Below, piece by piece: positions 12,837 through 19,717 of a stretch of DNA of 19,717 bases (position 1 is the stretch's first letter; each line of letters opens with the position of its first letter). Under the pieces are notes generated by a model. The model had not been told where the DNA came from. It ran no database searches and saw only the letters and a list, made by a program, of their open reading frames with translations. This DNA comes from Candidatus Hadarchaeales archaeon (GTDB lineage: Archaea; Hadarchaeota; Hadarchaeia; Hadarchaeales; WYZ-LMO6), in the NCBI GenBank assembly GCA_038851755.1, contig JAWCKR010000012.1:21544-41260 (forward strand), in the 5' to 3' direction. Both the position numbers and the translations under genes were made by a program.

Positions 12837-12909
12837 GCCCCGGTAGCTCAGCTGGTAGAGCAATCGCCTTGTAAGCGATGGGTCGTGGGTTCAAATCCCA
12901 CCCGGGGCT
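12837..12909 (+). tRNA. tRNA-Thr(TGT), no intron, CCA not encoded
   Basis: Acceptor stem GCCCCGG/CCGGGGC, D-arm GCTC..GAGC, anticodon arm ATCGC-CTTGTAA-GCGAT, T-arm GTGGG-TTCAAAT-CCCAC. Confidence 0.96.
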
Positions 12910-13174
12910 CTTAAAGGTGGTCTTCTTATTTTCGCTGAGTCAGATAGCGGTAGGAATTTTGAGGAAAATCGGGAAAGAAGGAGTCAAGAGAGTACGGAGG
13001 CTCCCTTGGAGTATGTATATAGAGGCAGGTGTTTTCCGGCCTATTAAGTTTCCAGCCAAGGCAGTATAAGCTGGCAGACCGAAATTTAGTGTCTAAGTGA
13101 TAGCACATTTGTGCAAGGTTGAGATAGGAAAACTTCCTTTTTAGGCACGGGACTCAACCGATTTTTCTGGAGGG

Positions 13175-13186
13175 GAAAGTTTTTAT
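13175..13186 (+). promoter_or_regulatory. BRE/TATA promoter of the acr operon
   Basis: GAAAG-TTTTTAT about 23 nt upstream of ATG 13209; this favours 13209 over 13185 as the start codon. Confidence 0.5.
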
Positions 13187-13208
13187 GGGAAGAGGAAAAG
13201 ACTTCCTA

Positions 13209-15035
13209 ATGTCTTCCTCGGAGAGGAAGGGGGAAAAGGCCTTCCAGGAAAGAGGACAGATAGAGGCCAGAGAGAGGGAATATGTAAGGGAACTTTACGC
13301 GGTTTCCGCGAGGTTCCTCCCGCTTGAGAAGGAAAGGGTGCTCTACGCCAGCCTTAAGGAAACCTTCGGCTCCGACCCCTTCGCCCTCCAGGACTCCCAG
13401 ATGTACAAGAGGGGGGGCTACAGGCAGTCCAGGCGCAAGCAGGAGTTCGCCAAGCTGGGGAGGCAGGTGGCCGTGGAGAGGGGTCTCCCCGCCTACAACA
13501 GGGCGGTGGGCCTGCCCATAGGCCAGAGGCAGCTGGAGCCCATCCTGATAGCCGGAACGAACATCATGGTGGAGCAGGACGACACCCACCACCTGAACAA
13601 CGTGGCCATCCAGCAGATGCTGGACGACATAAAGCGCACCGTCATCGTGAACCTGGACATCGCCCACCGCATGCTCACCGTGAGGGCGGGCAAGGAGGTC
13701 ACCCCCGAGACCATCAACCTCTACCTGGAGACCCTCCAGCACACCATGTGCGGTGGGGCCGTGGCCCAGGAGCACATGTCCGAGATCAACCCCCTCCTGG
13801 TCAAGGACGCCTACGCCAAGGTCATCACGGGCTCCGACGAGGTGAAGGACGCCCTGGACAGGCGCTTCCTCATAGACATAGACCAGCTCTTCCACCCCAC
13901 CAGGGCCGAGAAGCTCAAGGCGGCCATAGGGGAGGCCATCTGGATCGTCCTCCGCATCCCCACCCTGGCCGTCCGCATGGCGGACGGGGACGAGGCCGCC
14001 AGGTGGGCGGCTATGCAGAACACCATGGCCTTCATCGCCTCCTACGGTCTCTCGGGAGAGCACATCATCTCCGACCTGGCCTACTCCTTCAAGCACGCCA
14101 GGGTGGTCAGGATGGGCGGCAAGATGTGGTACCAGAGGATGAGGGGGACGAACGAGCCGGGGGGCTTCCCCGACGGCTACATCTGCGACTTCATGCAGGC
14201 GGAGAGGGACCTCCCCGCCCGCAGGTTCCTGGAGGTGGCCCAGGAGGACGAGGAGGAGGCCAAGAGGTACCTGAGGGTTCTGAACGAGGGAACGGGGGGA
14301 ATAGCGGCCGTGATAGACAACTCCCTCTGGCTGGGCTTCTACATGAGCGGGGGAATAGGCTTCTCCAACACCGTGGCCTCGGCCGCCTTGGCAGGCAACG
14401 TGATAGAATCCTTCTCGGATGAGCTGGTGGAGCTCATTCACAGGTACACGATGGGTGTGAGGAAGTCTCCACCCAAGTGGGATACGGTGAAGTTCATGGT
14501 GAACACCATCATCCAGTACACCATGGAGAGCTACGAGAAGTTCCCCACCCTGGCCGAGTTCCACTGGGGAGGGGCCCACAGGGTCTCCGTGATAGGCTCC
14601 ATAGCTGCCTCCACGGCTGGTATTCTCACCGGGAGCTCCACCATGGGGCTCATGGCGGCCCACTACTCTATAGCCCACGTGATGAGGGAGGGCTGGCTCA
14701 GGACGGGGTGGGCGGGACAGGAGATTCAGGACCACATAGGCCTTCCCTACCTGTGCAGCTTCAGACCTGAGGAGGGAAACCTGACGGAGCTGCGGGGGCT
14801 GAACTACCCCATGCAGTCCTACAGCGCCGCCCACGGGGCCATCAGGGCGGCGGCCGTCTACTCGGCCATGCTGGGGAGGGGAAGTGCCTGGTGTCTCAGC
14901 CCCATCGTGAAGGTGGCCTTCGCCGATCCCCACCTGGTGTTCGACTTCAAGAATCCCAGGATGTGCATCGCCAAGGCGGGGATAAGGCAGTTCATGCCGG
15001 CCGGGGAGAGGGACCCGGTGCTTCCGCCCCACTGA
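13209..15035 (+). CDS. acrA: Alkyl-coenzyme M reductase alpha subunit (divergent McrA), copy 1
   Basis: McrA motifs RGLPAYN, GQRQL, KEVTPETINLYLE, GGAVAQEHM, RWAAMQ, KHA, NEPGG, WLGFYMSGGIGF, ELRGLNYP, VAFADP, FMPAGER, with non-canonical active-site residues. Confidence 0.93.
   Translation: MSSSERKGEKAFQERGQIEAREREYVRELYAVSARFLPLEKERVLYASLKETFGSDPFALQDSQMYKRGGYRQSRRKQEFAKLGRQVAVERGLPAYNRAVGLPIGQRQLEPILIAGTNIMVEQDDTHHLNNVAIQQMLDDIKRTVIVNLDIAHRMLTVRAGKEVTPETINLYLETLQHTMCGGAVAQEHMSEINPLLVKDAYAKVITGSDEVKDALDRRFLIDIDQLFHPTRAEKLKAAIGEAIWIVLRIPTLAVRMADGDEAARWAAMQNTMAFIASYGLSGEHIISDLAYSFKHARVVRMGGKMWYQRMRGTNEPGGFPDGYICDFMQAERDLPARRFLEVAQEDEEEAKRYLRVLNEGTGGIAAVIDNSLWLGFYMSGGIGFSNTVASAALAGNVIESFSDELVELIHRYTMGVRKSPPKWDTVKFMVNTIIQYTMESYEKFPTLAEFHWGGAHRVSVIGSIAASTAGILTGSSTMGLMAAHYSIAHVMREGWLRTGWAGQEIQDHIGLPYLCSFRPEEGNLTELRGLNYPMQSYSAAHGAIRAAAVYSAMLGRGSAWCLSPIVKVAFADPHLVFDFKNPRMCIAKAGIRQFMPAGERDPVLPPH
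13362..13488 (+). repeat. 127-nt exact direct repeat, copy 1 (inside acrA1)
   Basis: Identical base for base to 19591-19717; the preceding base differs (a versus c). Confidence 0.95.
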
Positions 15036-15044
15036 GGTGAAGGC

Positions 15045-15656
15045 ATGAGGAAGATTCCGAAGTTGGAGGAGTGGTATCCTGCCTTCGCAGAGGAGTTCGA
15101 AAAGACCAAGCTTTCCACGGTGATGGAGAGGGTGACCACGGAGGAACCTCCCCTCCCCAAGGCTTCCCAGCCCCGCCCGGATGGCTGGTGGAGGGAGTAT
15201 CCGCACTCCCTCTGGATAGTGGACAGGGGAAAGGAGCCTACTGCTTACGAGCTTCTTCACGACTTCATCATAGGGAAGGCCATGACCAGCCCCCTCGCCA
15301 TTTCGATAGGGAGCACCCCGCCTTCTAGGCTCATCCTCTTCGAGGTGAAGCACCCCACCAGGGGGGTGGAGTATGCGAGGATTTTCCTGAACCCCACGGA
15401 TGTGATGGAGGGCTACGCGGAGGAGGAGCCCGATGTGGTGGTGAGGATAGGGTACTACGATTTGGTGGCCGTGCTATGCGGTGAGCTCCCTCCCTTCAAC
15501 CCACTCTACGAAGGAAGGGTGGAGATAATAGGGAATACGGTGGCAGCCATAGACCTTTTATGCGATGTGCTGGAAGCTACTAATGGCAGAGAGGCCCCCG
15601 CTGGGAGCCCGACTCCCATTCCGCGGCCGGTGATGTGGCCTCTCGGACACCCGTAG
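15045..15656 (+). CDS. Protein with a C-terminal SCP2-like lipid-binding domain
   Basis: EEPDVVVRIGYYDLVAVLCGELPPFNPLYEGRVEIIGN fits the SCP2 pattern (PDvti..s..df..l..G.l.p..a...G.l.i.G); GAGGTG RBS; sits between acrA and acrB. Confidence 0.65.
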   Translation: MRKIPKLEEWYPAFAEEFEKTKLSTVMERVTTEEPPLPKASQPRPDGWWREYPHSLWIVDRGKEPTAYELLHDFIIGKAMTSPLAISIGSTPPSRLILFEVKHPTRGVEYARIFLNPTDVMEGYAEEEPDVVVRIGYYDLVAVLCGELPPFNPLYEGRVEIIGNTVAAIDLLCDVLEATNGREAPAGSPTPIPRPVMWPLGHP

Positions 15657-15664
15657 GTGGAAGG

Positions 15665-17041
15665 ATGAAGGTCGAGACGAGGAAGGGAACGGTGGACCTG
15701 TACGACGACCTGGGCAACTGTGTGGGCAGTGAAATCCCCCTGAAGGCGCTCTCTCCCCTCTACAATCCATACATGCGGGAAGTCCTGGACCTCTTCAAGA
15801 GGCTCGCCGTCATAGACCTGGGCAAGCTGGAGAACCTGATGAAGAAGGGAATGGCGGGCTGGGAGACGGCGGTGGGACAGGACGAGAACAAGATGCCCTG
15901 GTACGGCAGGGATCTCCCCTTGGTGGATAAGGCCAAGGAGATCACGGAGAGGATAAGGGAGAAGGTGGAAAAGCACGGGGATGGAGAGCAGCTGGTGGAG
16001 GGGGCAGGAAGGTACATCATAGTGAAGGTTCCGCGCCGGATGATGGAAATCTCGGCTAGCAGGGACCCGGCCATAACCTGGACGGCGGTCGCCCTGTGTC
16101 AGGCCGTGGCTGAGACCTTCAACATGACTCCCGAGACGGACCCGGACGGGTGCAACATGCTCAAGGGGGCGGTCTTCGGAAGATACCCGCAGTCCCCCGA
16201 GTTTTCTCCTGGTGGTCCTGTATCCACCTTCCTGAAGCAGAGCAACACCGTCGATGGGCTGGGCTCAGGCTTCAAGGCCATCATGGTCAATCATCTGGTG
16301 GCTCTCTGTAACAAGAGGACCATGGACGGGGTGGCTCTGGCCACCATCTTGGAGCAGGCGGCCCAGTGGGAGATGGGGAACGCCCTGGGATGGTTTGAGA
16401 GGTACCAGCTCCTCGGTTCGGCCTACCAGGGGTTCAACGCCCACAACCTGGTGCTCGATTTGGTGAAGGAGAATAGGGAGGGGACGATAGGGGATGTGGC
16501 ATACAGCGTGGTGCGCAGGGCGCTGGAGGATGGTGTGATCAAGGTGAAGAGAACCCTCCCCTCCGGCTACAAAGTCTACTCCACGAGTGACTACTCCCTA
16601 TGGAACGCTTACACCTGTGCGGCCGTGCTCGCCGCCGTCATCGTGAACGTGGGGGCCAGCAGGGCGGCCCAGAGCGTTTCCACCGTGGTGGGGTATTTCG
16701 GTGACCTCCTCCTGATGGAGACAGGGGGCCTCCCCGATCCCGACGCGGGGAGGGTGGAGGGGACGGGACAGGGCTTTGCCTTCTACACCCACTCCATCTA
16801 TGGAGGTGCGGGTCCGGGGGCCTACACCCTCGATCACGTGATCCCAAGGCACGGTTCGGGTTTCGTGGGTCCGTGCATCGTGGCCGGCATGTGTTTGGAC
16901 TCTGGCACCCAGCTCTTCTCCCCCGAGATGACCTCGGCCAGCTACTTCAAGATAAGGGAGAAGCTGCCCCTCCTCCATGACCCCCTCAGGAAGGTGGCGG
17001 AGGCGGCGGAGAGGATAAAGCCGGAGGTGGGGAGGGAGTAA
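15665..17041 (+). CDS. acrB: Alkyl-coenzyme M reductase beta subunit
   Basis: VDLYDD.G, LSPLYNP, GAVFGRYPQ, GLGSGFKAIMVNH, EQAAQWEMGNA.G.FER..LLG.AYQG.NA, FYTHSIYGGAGPG; GGTGGA RBS before ATG 15665. Confidence 0.95.
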   Translation: MKVETRKGTVDLYDDLGNCVGSEIPLKALSPLYNPYMREVLDLFKRLAVIDLGKLENLMKKGMAGWETAVGQDENKMPWYGRDLPLVDKAKEITERIREKVEKHGDGEQLVEGAGRYIIVKVPRRMMEISASRDPAITWTAVALCQAVAETFNMTPETDPDGCNMLKGAVFGRYPQSPEFSPGGPVSTFLKQSNTVDGLGSGFKAIMVNHLVALCNKRTMDGVALATILEQAAQWEMGNALGWFERYQLLGSAYQGFNAHNLVLDLVKENREGTIGDVAYSVVRRALEDGVIKVKRTLPSGYKVYSTSDYSLWNAYTCAAVLAAVIVNVGASRAAQSVSTVVGYFGDLLLMETGGLPDPDAGRVEGTGQGFAFYTHSIYGGAGPGAYTLDHVIPRHGSGFVGPCIVAGMCLDSGTQLFSPEMTSASYFKIREKLPLLHDPLRKVAEAAERIKPEVGRE

Positions 17042-17042
17042 G

Positions 17043-17834
17043 ATGGCGGCGGGCAAGGTGAAGTACGAGCCGCAGATTTACCCTGGAAAGGATGAGACGT
17101 CGGAGAGGAGACGGAAGCTCTGGGACAAGAAGAGGAAGCTGGCGAAGTACCGTGAGATCTCCGACGATGATATCACCCGCCTGCTGGGGCACAGGGCGGT
17201 AGGGGCCCTCTATCCCAGCGTGCACCCGCCTCTGGAGGAACTCATCGAGCCCTACGACCCCATCAAGAACATCGTGGTCCCCACTCCCGGGGCCAGAGCC
17301 GGGGACAGGATAAGGTTCGTGCAGTTCGCGGACAGCTTCTGGCATCCACCCATCGCACCCTACGGCAGGCTGAGGCTCTACTTCAACAGGCTGAGGGGGA
17401 TAGACGTGGTGGCCTACAGCGGGAGGTGCATCCTGGAGATGAGGGAGAGGGACCTGGAGGCGGCGATGAAGATGCTGCTGGAGACAGAAATCTTCAACCC
17501 CGCCAGGACGGCCCTGAAGGGTATAACCATCCACGGTCACTCCCTGAGGCTGGACGAGGACGGGCTGATGTTCGACGCCAGGAGGAGGTACATCTTGGAC
17601 AAGTCAAGCGGGGAGGTGGTGTACATCAAGGACCAGATGGGGAGGGTGCTGGACAACCCAGTGCCTGTGGGCAGACCCCTCTCCGAGGAGGAGTGCAGGA
17701 AGCTGGACCTGGCCTATACCTGGGACACTCATCCCTTCAAATCGAGGACTGAGGTTTTGGAGATTATCTCCAGGGCAGCCAAGCTGAGGGTATTGGCGGG
17801 TTTCAATCCAGAACTCCTGACGGAAGAAATGTGA
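17043..17834 (+). CDS. acrG: Alkyl-coenzyme M reductase gamma subunit
   Basis: YEPQIYPG, LLGHR...YPSVHPPLEE, GARAGDRIRFVQFADS, SGR..LE.RERDLE, HGHSLRLDEDGLMFD. Confidence 0.95.
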   Translation: MAAGKVKYEPQIYPGKDETSERRRKLWDKKRKLAKYREISDDDITRLLGHRAVGALYPSVHPPLEELIEPYDPIKNIVVPTPGARAGDRIRFVQFADSFWHPPIAPYGRLRLYFNRLRGIDVVAYSGRCILEMRERDLEAAMKMLLETEIFNPARTALKGITIHGHSLRLDEDGLMFDARRRYILDKSSGEVVYIKDQMGRVLDNPVPVGRPLSEEECRKLDLAYTWDTHPFKSRTEVLEIISRAAKLRVLAGFNPELLTEEM

Positions 17835-17843
17835 GGTGGGTTT

Positions 17844-19415
17844 TTGAGCAAGCATCTAGAGGGGGTCAGCAAGGTTCTGAGCCCGGAGGCTTTTGAGGAT
17901 TTCAAGAAGAGAGTCACAGGCACGGTTTTGGAGATAAGGGAAAAACAAGCTGAGTACTACCGGGACACCTATCCTCCCGGTTACGAACACATAGCCCCCG
18001 ATGGCATGGCCACCGAGCCTTGGATCCTGAACTGGGTGAGGGAGCGTGGTGGAATAACCATGGAGGAGTACGACAAGCTGATTTACGAGGAATTTGTGGA
18101 ATGGGCTTACCGCGTTATCCATGCCATAGGGGTTTGCAAGCGTGCGGTGGCGGAGAAGCCCCCGGTTTCGGAACTCATCAAGGCCAAGTGGCTGTGCCAC
18201 CTCAGCCATCCCCCCGCTTATATGGTGAGACCAGATCTTGGTTTCTCTACCACCCAGATGCTCTATGGTAAGTACGCAACCACCATGTGGTGCCATGTGG
18301 ACTGGTGGAGGGGAGAGTTCGTTTGGTTCCAAGGATATCACAACGAGGATGGAGTGCCGGTCCAGCACTGGATCATAGGCATGACCAGGGAAATCGTGCA
18401 GCACTTCGACGAGGAGGACAGGCAGAAGCTCCTCACGCCCAGCGACTTCATGGCGGTTCCTCCCGATGTCACGATGCCCCTCGACCGCAGGCACCTGCGC
18501 ACAGGTATAAAGCTCAGGGAGATCCCCAAGAAGTCCCCCTACGATCTGGTGGAGTGGCTCAGGATGGCCAGGGACATCATCAAGGACCTGAGGGAAGAAA
18601 TTTTCCCCAAGTGGGCTCATGCCACTCTCTATATCTCCACTTCACCAGGCAACATGGGAATAGGTTCCCAGCACACTTTCTGGACCTCGCATTTCTGGGC
18701 GCTGGTCTGGATGGCCATGAACGCCACCAGGCTGATCGGCATACCCATCATGTTCTACACCTACGAACCCCTCCCCCCCATCCTCAACACCCTCCTGGCC
18801 CTTCCCGCCGAACTCTGGGTGAGGAGGTTGGAGGAACTCTTCACCACGGGGCCGAAGGGTCTGGTTTGCGATGCCGTCAACAAGGTCATCACTCCTGAGA
18901 AGAAGACCCCCATGCTCCACCAGATGAGAGAGCTCTACCTCAAAGGGAAGGCGTTCAAGGGGATGGCTCTCCCCTACGATGAGGGCATACCTCCGCCCAA
19001 GGCCTTCTTCACCGCCCTTCCCGCGCCCGTTTACAGGGAGGTGAACATAAGGGATGTGTTCGCCAACCCAGACAAGCTACCCAAGGAGTACTGGGAGCTG
19101 CTGGAGTCCGAAGGAGGAGTGGACAGGAAGACGGGTAGGATTCCACCCTACAACGAAGTTCCCAGGCTGAAGTACCTCTTCGACCCCACCATAGAGTGGC
19201 TGAAGCCCAGCGACTTTCCCCCCATAGACTGGAAGGAAGGTCAGGTCTGGCCAGTGGACATGACGAGGGAAAAGATGCAGATAATGGTGGAGGAGGGCTA
19301 CGACGGCTCGGGGGAGAATCTCCTGCACTACAGTTGTCTAGCAGACAAGAAGATGGGCCAAGAGGGGAAGCTGGTTCTTCTGGGCACCACACCCTACAAG
19401 CTGCCCGTAGAGTAA
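17844..19415 (+). CDS. Uncharacterised 523-aa Trp/Pro/Met-rich protein in the acr operon
   Basis: TTG start 9 nt after the acrG stop with a GAGGTG RBS; long clean ORF; family not recognised. Confidence 0.8.
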   Translation: MSKHLEGVSKVLSPEAFEDFKKRVTGTVLEIREKQAEYYRDTYPPGYEHIAPDGMATEPWILNWVRERGGITMEEYDKLIYEEFVEWAYRVIHAIGVCKRAVAEKPPVSELIKAKWLCHLSHPPAYMVRPDLGFSTTQMLYGKYATTMWCHVDWWRGEFVWFQGYHNEDGVPVQHWIIGMTREIVQHFDEEDRQKLLTPSDFMAVPPDVTMPLDRRHLRTGIKLREIPKKSPYDLVEWLRMARDIIKDLREEIFPKWAHATLYISTSPGNMGIGSQHTFWTSHFWALVWMAMNATRLIGIPIMFYTYEPLPPILNTLLALPAELWVRRLEELFTTGPKGLVCDAVNKVITPEKKTPMLHQMRELYLKGKAFKGMALPYDEGIPPPKAFFTALPAPVYREVNIRDVFANPDKLPKEYWELLESEGGVDRKTGRIPPYNEVPRLKYLFDPTIEWLKPSDFPPIDWKEGQVWPVDMTREKMQIMVEEGYDGSGENLLHYSCLADKKMGQEGKLVLLGTTPYKLPVE

Positions 19416-19445
19416 CCTTTTTATTTACTTCTTTCCCATTCTCCT
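19416..19445 (+). promoter_or_regulatory. Pyrimidine/T-rich tract: possible terminator and/or TATA box for acrA2
   Basis: CCTTTTTATTTACTTCTTTCCC follows the stop; TTTTTAT lies about 26 nt upstream of GTG 19450, similar to the acrA1 promoter. Confidence 0.4.
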
Positions 19446-19449
19446 AAAC

Positions 19450-19717
19450 GTGGAGAGAAAGAGAGGGCTGGACGAAAGGGCAGGCCAGCTCGAAGCTAGG
19501 GAGAGGGAATATATCCGAGAATTGTACGCTCTTTCCAAGAAGTACCTCGAGGTGGAGAAGGAGAGACCTCTGTACTCGATTATGCAGCGCACCTTCGGCT
19601 CCGACCCCTTCGCCCTCCAGGACTCCCAGATGTACAAGAGGGGGGGCTACAGGCAGTCCAGGCGCAAGCAGGAGTTCGCCAAGCTGGGGAGGCAGGTGGC
19701 CGTGGAGAGGGGTCTCC
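19450..19717 (+). CDS. acrA: Second ACR alpha subunit, 5' part (runs off the window)
   Basis: Not in the ORF track. Hand translation MERKRGLDERAGQLEAREREYIRELYALSKKYLEVEKERPLYSIMQRTFGSDPFALQDSQMYKRGGYRQSRRKQEFAKLGRQVAVERGL is paralogous to the acrA1 N-terminus. Confidence 0.9.
   Translation, partial: MERKRGLDERAGQLEAREREYIRELYALSKKYLEVEKERPLYSIMQRTFGSDPFALQDSQMYKRGGYRQSRRKQEFAKLGRQVAVERGL
19591..19717 (+). repeat. 127-nt exact direct repeat, copy 2 (inside acrA2, at the window end)
   Basis: Identical to 13362-13488. Confidence 0.95.

Follow-up and report, generated by a model that had tools for sequence, protein, structure and literature searches.

The 19,717-nucleotide (nt) stretch considered here (the window) comes from contig C12 in the genome (1.25 Mb, 93% complete) of a Candidatus Hadarchaeales archaeon. 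It carries genes for alkyl-coenzyme M reductase (ACR), the enzyme with which the archaeal anaerobic oxidation of alkanes from ethane to wax begins, and directly behind them a gene for a protein of 523 amino acids (aa), X523, after which we call its family X. The X family is found almost only in archaea that carry ACR, and not with the methane-type methyl-coenzyme M reductase (MCR); it very probably belongs to ACR-dependent alkane metabolism. The reading we favour, to which we would give slightly less than an even chance, is that X523 acts directly downstream of ACR, binding or processing alkyl-coenzyme M (alkyl-CoM) or its long-chain product. The family is therewith a concrete candidate for the missing step after ACR in archaeal alkane breakdown. 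A preliminary description of the DNA had proposed for X523 a role as alkyl-CoM-processing enzyme, ACR assembly factor or extra subunit; genome profiles and gene neighbourhoods bear out the link with ACR, and a metal site in its cysteine and histidine clusters was not borne out. X523 and its parts lie as follows.

17844..19415, + strand: X523, 523-aa protein of a new ACR-linked family, TTG start
17833..17838, + strand: GAGGTG ribosome-binding site of X523, read from the sequence, overlapping the acrG stop codon
18024..19037, + strand: core region of X523 (residues 61-398), common to shorter relatives
19041..19412, + strand: C-terminal region of X523 (residues about 400-523), full-length family only

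The family could be sub-divided on the basis of length. In a quick tree the full-length members form two clades, one of ~520-540 aa that includes X523 and one of ~490 aa; the latter takes in the protein of Bathyarchaeota BA2 and the 577-579-aa proteins P0043, from Ca. Methanoliparum, and P0041. The core-only relatives, of ~375-455 aa and with another C-terminus, are found in Helarchaeota, Syntropharchaeia and other Halobacteriota. An hhalign comparison of the full-length alignment (A1) with the core-only one (A2) gave a probability of 100 and an E-value of 2e-39 over 291 aligned columns, covering residues 61-398. X523 itself is a full-length member, with homology over its whole length, including the EEGYDGSG...HYSxLAD region. 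This block belongs to the C-terminal region, which holds 24 of the 32 invariant residues of the family (at or after residue 421). The search found no longer, fused forms of X, which is weak evidence; shorter forms had no separate search.

The same genome sets were searched with the X family profile and with the AcrA of the window. The split between ACR-type and MCR-level matches is made on the score to that AcrA and is blind to divergent ACRs, e.g. those of the ethane type; related genomes are not independent, and counts rather than statistics are given. Among 66 Hadarchaeota genomes X occurs in seven and AcrA in the identical seven, six of which belong to one family while the other is the sole positive of 46 genomes in another family. 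In the 401 sampled Bathyarchaeia X is present in one genome, BA2, and no other carries an AcrA of 77% identity; X is absent from three genomes whose AcrA matches reach 471 bits at best. X or X-like genes were found in 14 of 401 sampled Halobacteriota, four being strong matches of the Methanoliparia type and ten weak ones of the core-only type. AcrA matches are present in 235 of the Halobacteriota; almost all of them level off at 42-45% identity and do not exceed 484 bits. All 11 genomes with AcrA at 574-903 bits are among the 14 X-positives, and the alpha-subunit match next in rank, in any other genome, has 481 bits; of the 224 with MCR-level matches only, three have X and 221 have none. Two of these three (G283 and G393) contain acrB-acrG directly upstream of their X-like genes. 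Within one complete class of 96 genomes, X-like genes are present in both genomes with a 688-bit AcrA, in none of the eight with matches of 472-481 bits and in none of the 86 without an AcrA match. Full-length X goes together with ACR-type AcrA in 7/7 Hadarchaeota, 1/1 Bathyarchaeia and 3/4 Methanoliparia-type genomes, and occurs in none of the ACR-lacking genomes searched. X tracks ACR-type AcrA, and neither profiles nor neighbourhoods revealed homologues that are widespread, with a known function, in ACR-lacking organisms.

The gene neighbourhoods point in the same direction. In the window X523 closes a tightly packed acrA/orf203/acrB/acrG/X523 unit that is followed by a second alpha subunit gene, acrA2, and this order recurs in all four records of the X523 orthologue from other Hadarchaeota (L010-L013). 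One of these, L010, contains acrA2 in full; behind it come another orf203-like gene and, in reverse orientation, a gene resembling the alpha part of ADP-forming acyl-coenzyme A (acyl-CoA) synthetases. Contig C20 of our genome opens with the matching acrA C-terminus and continues with orf203b, this synthetase-like gene, a 156-aa open reading frame (ORF), a 490-aa X paralogue and a tungsten-type aldehyde:ferredoxin oxidoreductase (AOR) gene; another genome of the genus, assembled in four contigs, has acrA2 at 2.6 kb from its 490-aa paralogue on a single contig. In BA2 acrA and the 490-aa X gene are 0.65 kb apart and enclose an orf203-like gene. A small ORF precedes the gene of the 490-aa clade in 8/8 loci that have upstream DNA (L019-L026). 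An AOR gene follows the 490-aa paralogue in L019, L020, L031 and L032 as well as on C20, the Methanoliparia homologues are followed by AOR in three loci (L029, L030, L126), and AOR is present in L121 too. Two Hadarchaeota X paralogues (L014, L015) are immediately preceded by an AMP-binding ligase gene, such a gene is also close to X in L126 and L118, and in L014 the X paralogue has a Pfam-significant SCP2 gene directly downstream. Genes like that for the ADP-forming synthetase alpha part are found nearby on C20 and in L010, L020, L121 and L122, and near core-only relatives in 7/80 metagenome loci. X genes are thus repeatedly found between acr genes and those for AOR or acyl-CoA synthetases, which makes X a specific protein to express and assay.

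The X-like genes of the core-only Halobacteriota lie 0.2-1.3 kb from acrA or acrBG in 9/10 genomes. Two of them are divergent from acrBGA, at about 200 nt, one lies 374 nt upstream of acrA, and in two pairs of loci one small gene or a YcaO gene separates acrA from the X-like gene. Tandem arrays of X-like genes, 0.9 kb after acrB-acrG, consist of six copies in L129 (G283:C246) and, in L130 (G393:C129), of four full copies and part of a fifth at the edge of the sequence examined; the copies are 44-49% identical to P0082.

Further arrangements around X genes were observed. In BA2 the small ORF and the 490-aa paralogue are immediately preceded by genes for a FAD_binding_4 oxidase and an HdrD-like protein with CCG/4Fe-4S domains (L022:6636-9286), at 2.7-5.3 kb from acrA. 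Locus L126 (G076) shows the order unknown gene, X, AOR, 273-aa unknown gene and AMP-binding ligase, on the same 26.8-kb contig as acrBGA; the first of these (L126:7202-8365) is a 388-aa gene without a Pfam match, 5 nt upstream of the X homologue. In L123 and L124 an unannotated gene of ~182 aa separates acrA from the X-like gene, and L127 (G338) has two identical tandem X-like copies.

In the favoured reading, soluble X would receive from ACR the amphiphilic alkyl-CoM or one of its derivatives, and would open the thioether or pass the chain onward, working alongside SCP2-fold alkyl-chain carriers. The chain would then go to AOR, yielding a fatty acid, and to AMP- or ADP-forming acyl-CoA synthetases, yielding acyl-CoA. 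We infer a contact of X with alkyl-CoM, catalysis rather than a carrier or adaptor role, and the chemistry. A role after ACR is favoured because neighbourhoods with AOR, ligase and SCP2 genes recur even away from acr, because the expansion of X paralogues resembles that of substrate-handling enzymes, and because mcrC and mcrD exist elsewhere in the genome. In a more specific form, X would be a new-fold enzyme that opens the alkyl-CoM thioether and releases CoM, and that together with SCP2 carriers feeds a C1-oxygenated chain to AOR and acyl-CoA synthetases, its paralogues reflecting specialisation on chain length. So detailed a proposal is unlikely to be right in full.

The expansion is considerable. 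The 1.25-Mb genome contains six full-length copies and one fragment of X, and five other genomes of the same taxonomic family have 5-8 X matches each, some of them fragments. X paralogues and acrA copies were found at contig ends (C14:3-179, C16:30972-32393, the end of C12 and the start of C20). It is likely that the assembly is interrupted at these repeats of X and acrA, and the number of copies given for this genome is a lower bound.

The main rival holds that X523 is an accessory of ACR without chemistry of its own, i.e. an extra subunit, a factor for assembly, maturation or activation, or a gate that delivers alkanes or removes alkyl-CoM. It would explain why X523 ends the acrABG unit at a 9-nt gap, why X-like genes abut acr in nine of ten core-only Halobacteriota genomes, and why X is specific to genomes of the ACR type and not the MCR type. 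Yet most X copies in this genome lie apart from acr, several of them beside AOR or acyl-CoA synthetase genes, and an assembly factor with six or seven paralogues beside two or three ACRs, and with tandem arrays of up to six, would be unusual. Moreover, the genome already has mcrC and mcrD, and the Helarchaeota-type relatives occur without an acr gene nearby. We regard an accessory role as possible but rather doubtful; should X be a subunit or maturation factor after all, it would be a missing part needed for the heterologous production of ACR.

Several observations weigh against a role of X directly after ACR, some of which favour this rival. The gene between acrA and the X-like gene in L121 (L121:7252-8415, Pfam 2e-89) and L122 (L122:6989-8158) encodes YcaO, of a family known for a modification of McrA, and such a neighbour points to enzyme maturation instead. 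The X family has no recognised cofactor or catalytic motif and no invariant Cys or His, which fits an accessory and weighs against catalysis, because oxidation of a thioether carbon to an aldehyde normally needs a redox cofactor. The relatives that adjoin acr in Halobacteriota lack residues 400-523, the part where conservation is highest. The X-positive Methanoliparia genome G066 has only an MCR-level alpha match. No acr gene was found in the flanks (within 10 kb) of 80 Helarchaeota-type metagenome loci, 778 kb in all, and the neighbours of the core-only relatives in the metagenome loci are diverse; labels for some of them (activase-like, glycyl-radical-like, enoyl-CoA hydratase-like), read by eye from N-termini, are tentative and enter into no argument here. 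Of the 44 core-only matches, 17 are named records: 12 from Helarchaeota, two from Hodarchaeota, one each from Promethearchaeota and Syntropharchaeia, and one from a bacterial Deferrimicrobium metagenome-assembled genome (MAG); the two Hodarchaeota and the Deferrimicrobium record are potential exceptions. Finally, the paralogues on C25, C14 and C5 of this genome have no recognisable alkane-related neighbour, being surrounded by genes for GTP cyclohydrolase III, DUF2341 proteins, a pectinacetylesterase-like hydrolase and an AIR-synthase-like protein.

The diverse neighbours of the core-only relatives, the Hodarchaeota and bacterial records and the surroundings of these three paralogues would also suit a function unrelated to alkane activation. 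X would then be a lineage-restricted family, e.g. for stress or for the handling of lipids or fatty acids in general, that travelled with acr islands in horizontal transfer. Against this, X and ACR-type genes co-occur in at least six separate lineages and X is absent from ACR-lacking relatives, the neighbourhoods with acr, AOR and acyl-CoA synthetase genes recur across phyla, and X523 is under strong purifying selection. We therefore hold an unrelated function to be improbable.

X523 is a real gene. Its dN/dS ratio was 0.046-0.063 against three orthologues, and two more distant orthologues gave values of pN of 0.11 and 0.24 with pS saturated. A word-seeded search of 5.8 billion protein clusters yielded 36 homologues at 33-95% identity, 28 of which cover at least 84% of the query; all 36 are without a name or labelled 'hypothetical'. 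An exhaustive phmmer scan of 1.84 billion representatives gave only 61 matches at E<=0.001. The closest named carriers are MAGs of Hadesarchaea/Hadarchaeota, at 94-95% protein identity. The TTG start is supported by the 34-sequence alignment, in which the homologues begin at the same position with M-S-(S/K)-H-L-E. The GAGGTG, separated from the TTG by 5 nt, agrees well with the archaeal anti-Shine-Dalgarno sequence. The window has a high G+C content and both its strands hold many long spurious ORFs, so that X523 might have been a chance open frame and no gene; this has a negligible probability, being refuted by the low dN/dS (about 0.05), by homologues with identities down to 33%, by the conserved start and ribosome-binding site, and by an AlphaFold2 model that reaches a pLDDT of 94.

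The sequence features that the preliminary description had listed for X523 are all present. The gene begins at 17844, 9 nt after the end of acrG at 17834, and has its ribosome-binding site. The protein is rich in Trp (3.6%), Tyr (4.6%), Met (4.0%) and Pro (8.6%), and has 5 Cys and 15 His. The aromatic hydrophobic stretch (FWTSHFWALVWMAM) is present at residues 278-291, and so are the three motifs WLCHLSH (116-122), MWCHVDW (147-153) and LHYSC (494-498). The reading of these motifs as a possible metal site was rejected: their Cys and His vary across the 34 sequences, and none of the 32 invariant columns of alignment A1 is Cys or His. The invariant polar residues are R90, T146, E158, E421, R441, D447, E451, Q467, D472, E476, K477 and E484. 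A membrane anchor was rejected as well (maximum 19-residue Kyte-Doolittle mean 1.45); in the fully confident globular model the hydrophobic stretch corresponds to a buried helix (281-292). In the favoured reading X523 is a soluble protein. An extra Cys-rich C-terminal tail, absent from X523, was seen in P0009, P0014, P0023 and P0024 (CGCSP(K/Q/H)C(G/S)), and in P0017 as CKCSRPH.

The AlphaFold2 model of X523, based on a 34-sequence alignment, has a pLDDT of 94.3, a pTM of 0.92 and no disordered segments. Foldseek found no match for it in the PDB (best E 0.49, probability 0.05, TMq 0.10) or among viral structures (best E 1.1). The modelled fold thus appears unlike any of the structures searched (PDB and viral models), and is unrecognised at this sensitivity. 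On the level of sequence, X523 matched none of the Pfam and NCBIfam families at E<=1, and the 34 family members and 10 distant relatives had no match in Pfam. PDB sequence searches gave nothing below E 1.2 with X523, nor did the family profile find anything there. The ESM Atlas had no usable match and no stored model for P0001 and P0007. An identity as McrD (PF02505) was rejected, no MCR_D match being found in X523 or the 34 family members, and that as McrC (PF04609) likewise, no MCR_C match being found in X523 or the family members. Component A2 and the MCR-modifying enzymes (ABC ATPase, YcaO, radical SAM, SAM methyltransferase) were discarded as no such Pfam or NCBIfam domain is present in X523. 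The preliminary view that X523 resembles none of these proteins therefore stands, and X523 is no substitute for McrC or McrD because the genome has both on contig C2.

McrC and McrD are nevertheless instructive for comparison. Like X, they look non-catalytic, are encoded together with the reductase subunits and are present where the enzyme is. X differs from them in having no sequence match and no PDB fold match, in its restriction to the ACR type, in its much larger size and in its multiple copies. The methanogenesis marker proteins (Mmp) are conserved genes defined by their co-occurrence with MCR. X resembles them in that phylogenetic profile and gene context, not biochemistry, led to its recognition; it is unlike them in being specific to ACR (221 MCR-level Halobacteriota lack X) and in having no NCBIfam or Pfam model. 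X is also a candidate marker for separating genomes with alkane-type from those with methane-type reductases. X tracks ACR across Hadarchaeota, Bathyarchaeia, Methanoliparia and other Halobacteriota and, judged by the names of the records, Helarchaeota.

For the conversion of alkyl-CoM, passages of PMC10811742 and PMC10322722 propose tungsten AOR in Ca. Ethanoperedens and MtaA/corrinoid methyltransferases in Ca. Syntrophoarchaeum. Both are candidates for the same step of the pathway as X, and AOR genes adjoin X paralogues in Hadarchaeota, Methanoliparia and L121. However, AOR acts on aldehydes and leaves the opening of the thioether unexplained, and X is a different, unannotated protein. These passages of the two papers make no mention of the X family, and a literature search, with subscription papers and supplements outside its scope, found no paper on X523 or on a link between SCP2 and alkyl-CoM. 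The expression tables of PMC11297162 and PMC10322722 may list the X gene, as a hypothetical protein. We regard X as a new, previously undescribed protein family, without database model or recognisable fold, the function of which we infer.

The genes around X523 are the following.

12837-12910, + strand: tRNA-Thr(UGU), 275 nt upstream of acrA
13185..15035, + strand: acrA1, ACR alpha subunit, 616 aa (Pfam MCR_alpha_N 1.8e-96, MCR_alpha 3.7e-22)
15045..15656, + strand: orf203, predicted SCP2-fold protein (Foldseek; weak Pfam SCP2)
15665..17041, + strand: acrB, beta subunit (Pfam MCR_beta 2.8e-96, MCR_beta_N 3.6e-29)
17043..17834, + strand: acrG, gamma subunit, 263 aa (Pfam MCR_gamma 5.9e-91)
19416..19449, + strand: 34-nt spacer with a T-rich tract and the element TTTTTATTTA, read from sequence only
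19450..19717, + strand: acrA2, second alpha subunit, N-terminus only as the contig stops here (Pfam MCR_alpha_N 1.1e-4)
C2:48949-49734: mcrC homologue (MCR_C match, 338.6 bits)
C2:49908-50207: mcrD homologue (MCR_D match)

The product of orf203 is a second unannotated companion of ACR. According to the models it has the SCP2 alpha/beta fold, with an N-terminal extension of ~60 aa and a conserved C-terminal tail. With its AlphaFold2 model (pLDDT 81) Foldseek gave 40 PDB matches at E<=0.001, SCP2 proteins (TMt 0.59-0.69) ranking highest. The E-values ranged from 9e-7 to 1e-5 (probability 1.0) for SCP2 proteins and the C-terminal, alkyl-chain-binding domain of the alkylsulfatase SdsA1, and from 9e-7 to 2e-4 with UbiJ-SCP2 included; by sequence, membership of Pfam SCP2 is below threshold (E 0.11, 13.3 bits vs a cut-off of 21.3). 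Homologues are found after acrA in Hadarchaeota, in BA2 and in four Halobacteriota loci, orf203-like genes being present in L010, L013, L020, L022, L118, L119, L123, L124, L132 and L133. They share an invariant RxxxWxxGxP tail, mostly RPxMWPxGHP, and an alignment of 12 sequences has 32 invariant columns. For the small ORFs in front of the 490-aa paralogues a comparison with orf203 (hhalign, A5 vs A4) gave a probability of 2.9%, and 1/9 of them matches Pfam SCP2 (E 0.075). A likeness to SdsA1 (PDB 2cfu) and UbiJ-SCP2 lies in the SCP2-fold orf203 within the X523 operon and in the SCP2 gene after the X paralogue in L014, and suggests, by analogy, that the SCP2 partner might present a hydrophobic chain as in SdsA1. 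X523 itself differs from SdsA1 in having neither an SCP2 nor a metallo-beta-lactamase fold, and orf203 is its putative partner. A predicted complex of X523 with orf203 had a median score of 0.25, against a mark of 0.32, and carries no weight either way.

The alpha subunit encoded by acrA1 is 77% identical to that of Bathyarchaeota BA2 and 63% to those of Methanoliparia. The gaps across acrA-orf203-acrB-acrG-X523 are 9, 8, 1 and 9 nt, counting acrB from the ATG at 15665. This ATG, 8 nt past the orf203 stop and preceded by GGTGGA, is the likely start of acrB, the longest ORF having a GTG start at 15635 that overlaps orf203. One copy each of acrB and acrG was found in the genome. The homologues of mcrC and mcrD are neighbours on C2 (C2:48949-50207, L138-L141), away from the acr genes.

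In two runs, contigs of 2.7-2.8 kb with a word depth of about 1,500 bridge the 3' end of acrB, acrG and X523; both runs are labelled metatranscriptomic and flagged as probably DNA. An RNA run of another study contains pieces, 90-95% alike, on acrA, acrB, acrG, X523 and acrA2 at depths of 2.8-19, and a fourth run searched for acr and X523 pieces gave nothing. Contigs from such runs show neither transcript nor level, and no conclusion on transcription was drawn from them. Co-transcription of X523 with acrG, deemed probable in the preliminary description, is kept as a candidate, on the basis of the 9-nt gap, the ribosome-binding site and bridging contigs of ambiguous library type.

The N-terminal piece of acrA2 is 82% identical to acrA1, and the acrA2 sequences of the window (19450-19717) and C20 (G000:C20:1-1479, L133) are 82-84% identical to it. 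On C20, and likewise in L010 and L020, acrA2 is followed by its own orf203-like gene, without acrB or acrG. This layout fits the third acrA outside an operon that is described for cultured hot-spring Hadarchaeota in a passage of PMC11297162.

The strict archaeal TATA pattern had no match near the acr operon, and promoters were called by eye. Read in the light of what is generally known of archaeal signals, the spacer between X523 and acrA2 possibly represents a candidate operon terminator together with a TATA-like promoter element for acrA2. The promoter of the acr operon is probably located in the AT-richer stretch between tRNA-Thr(UGU) and acrA.

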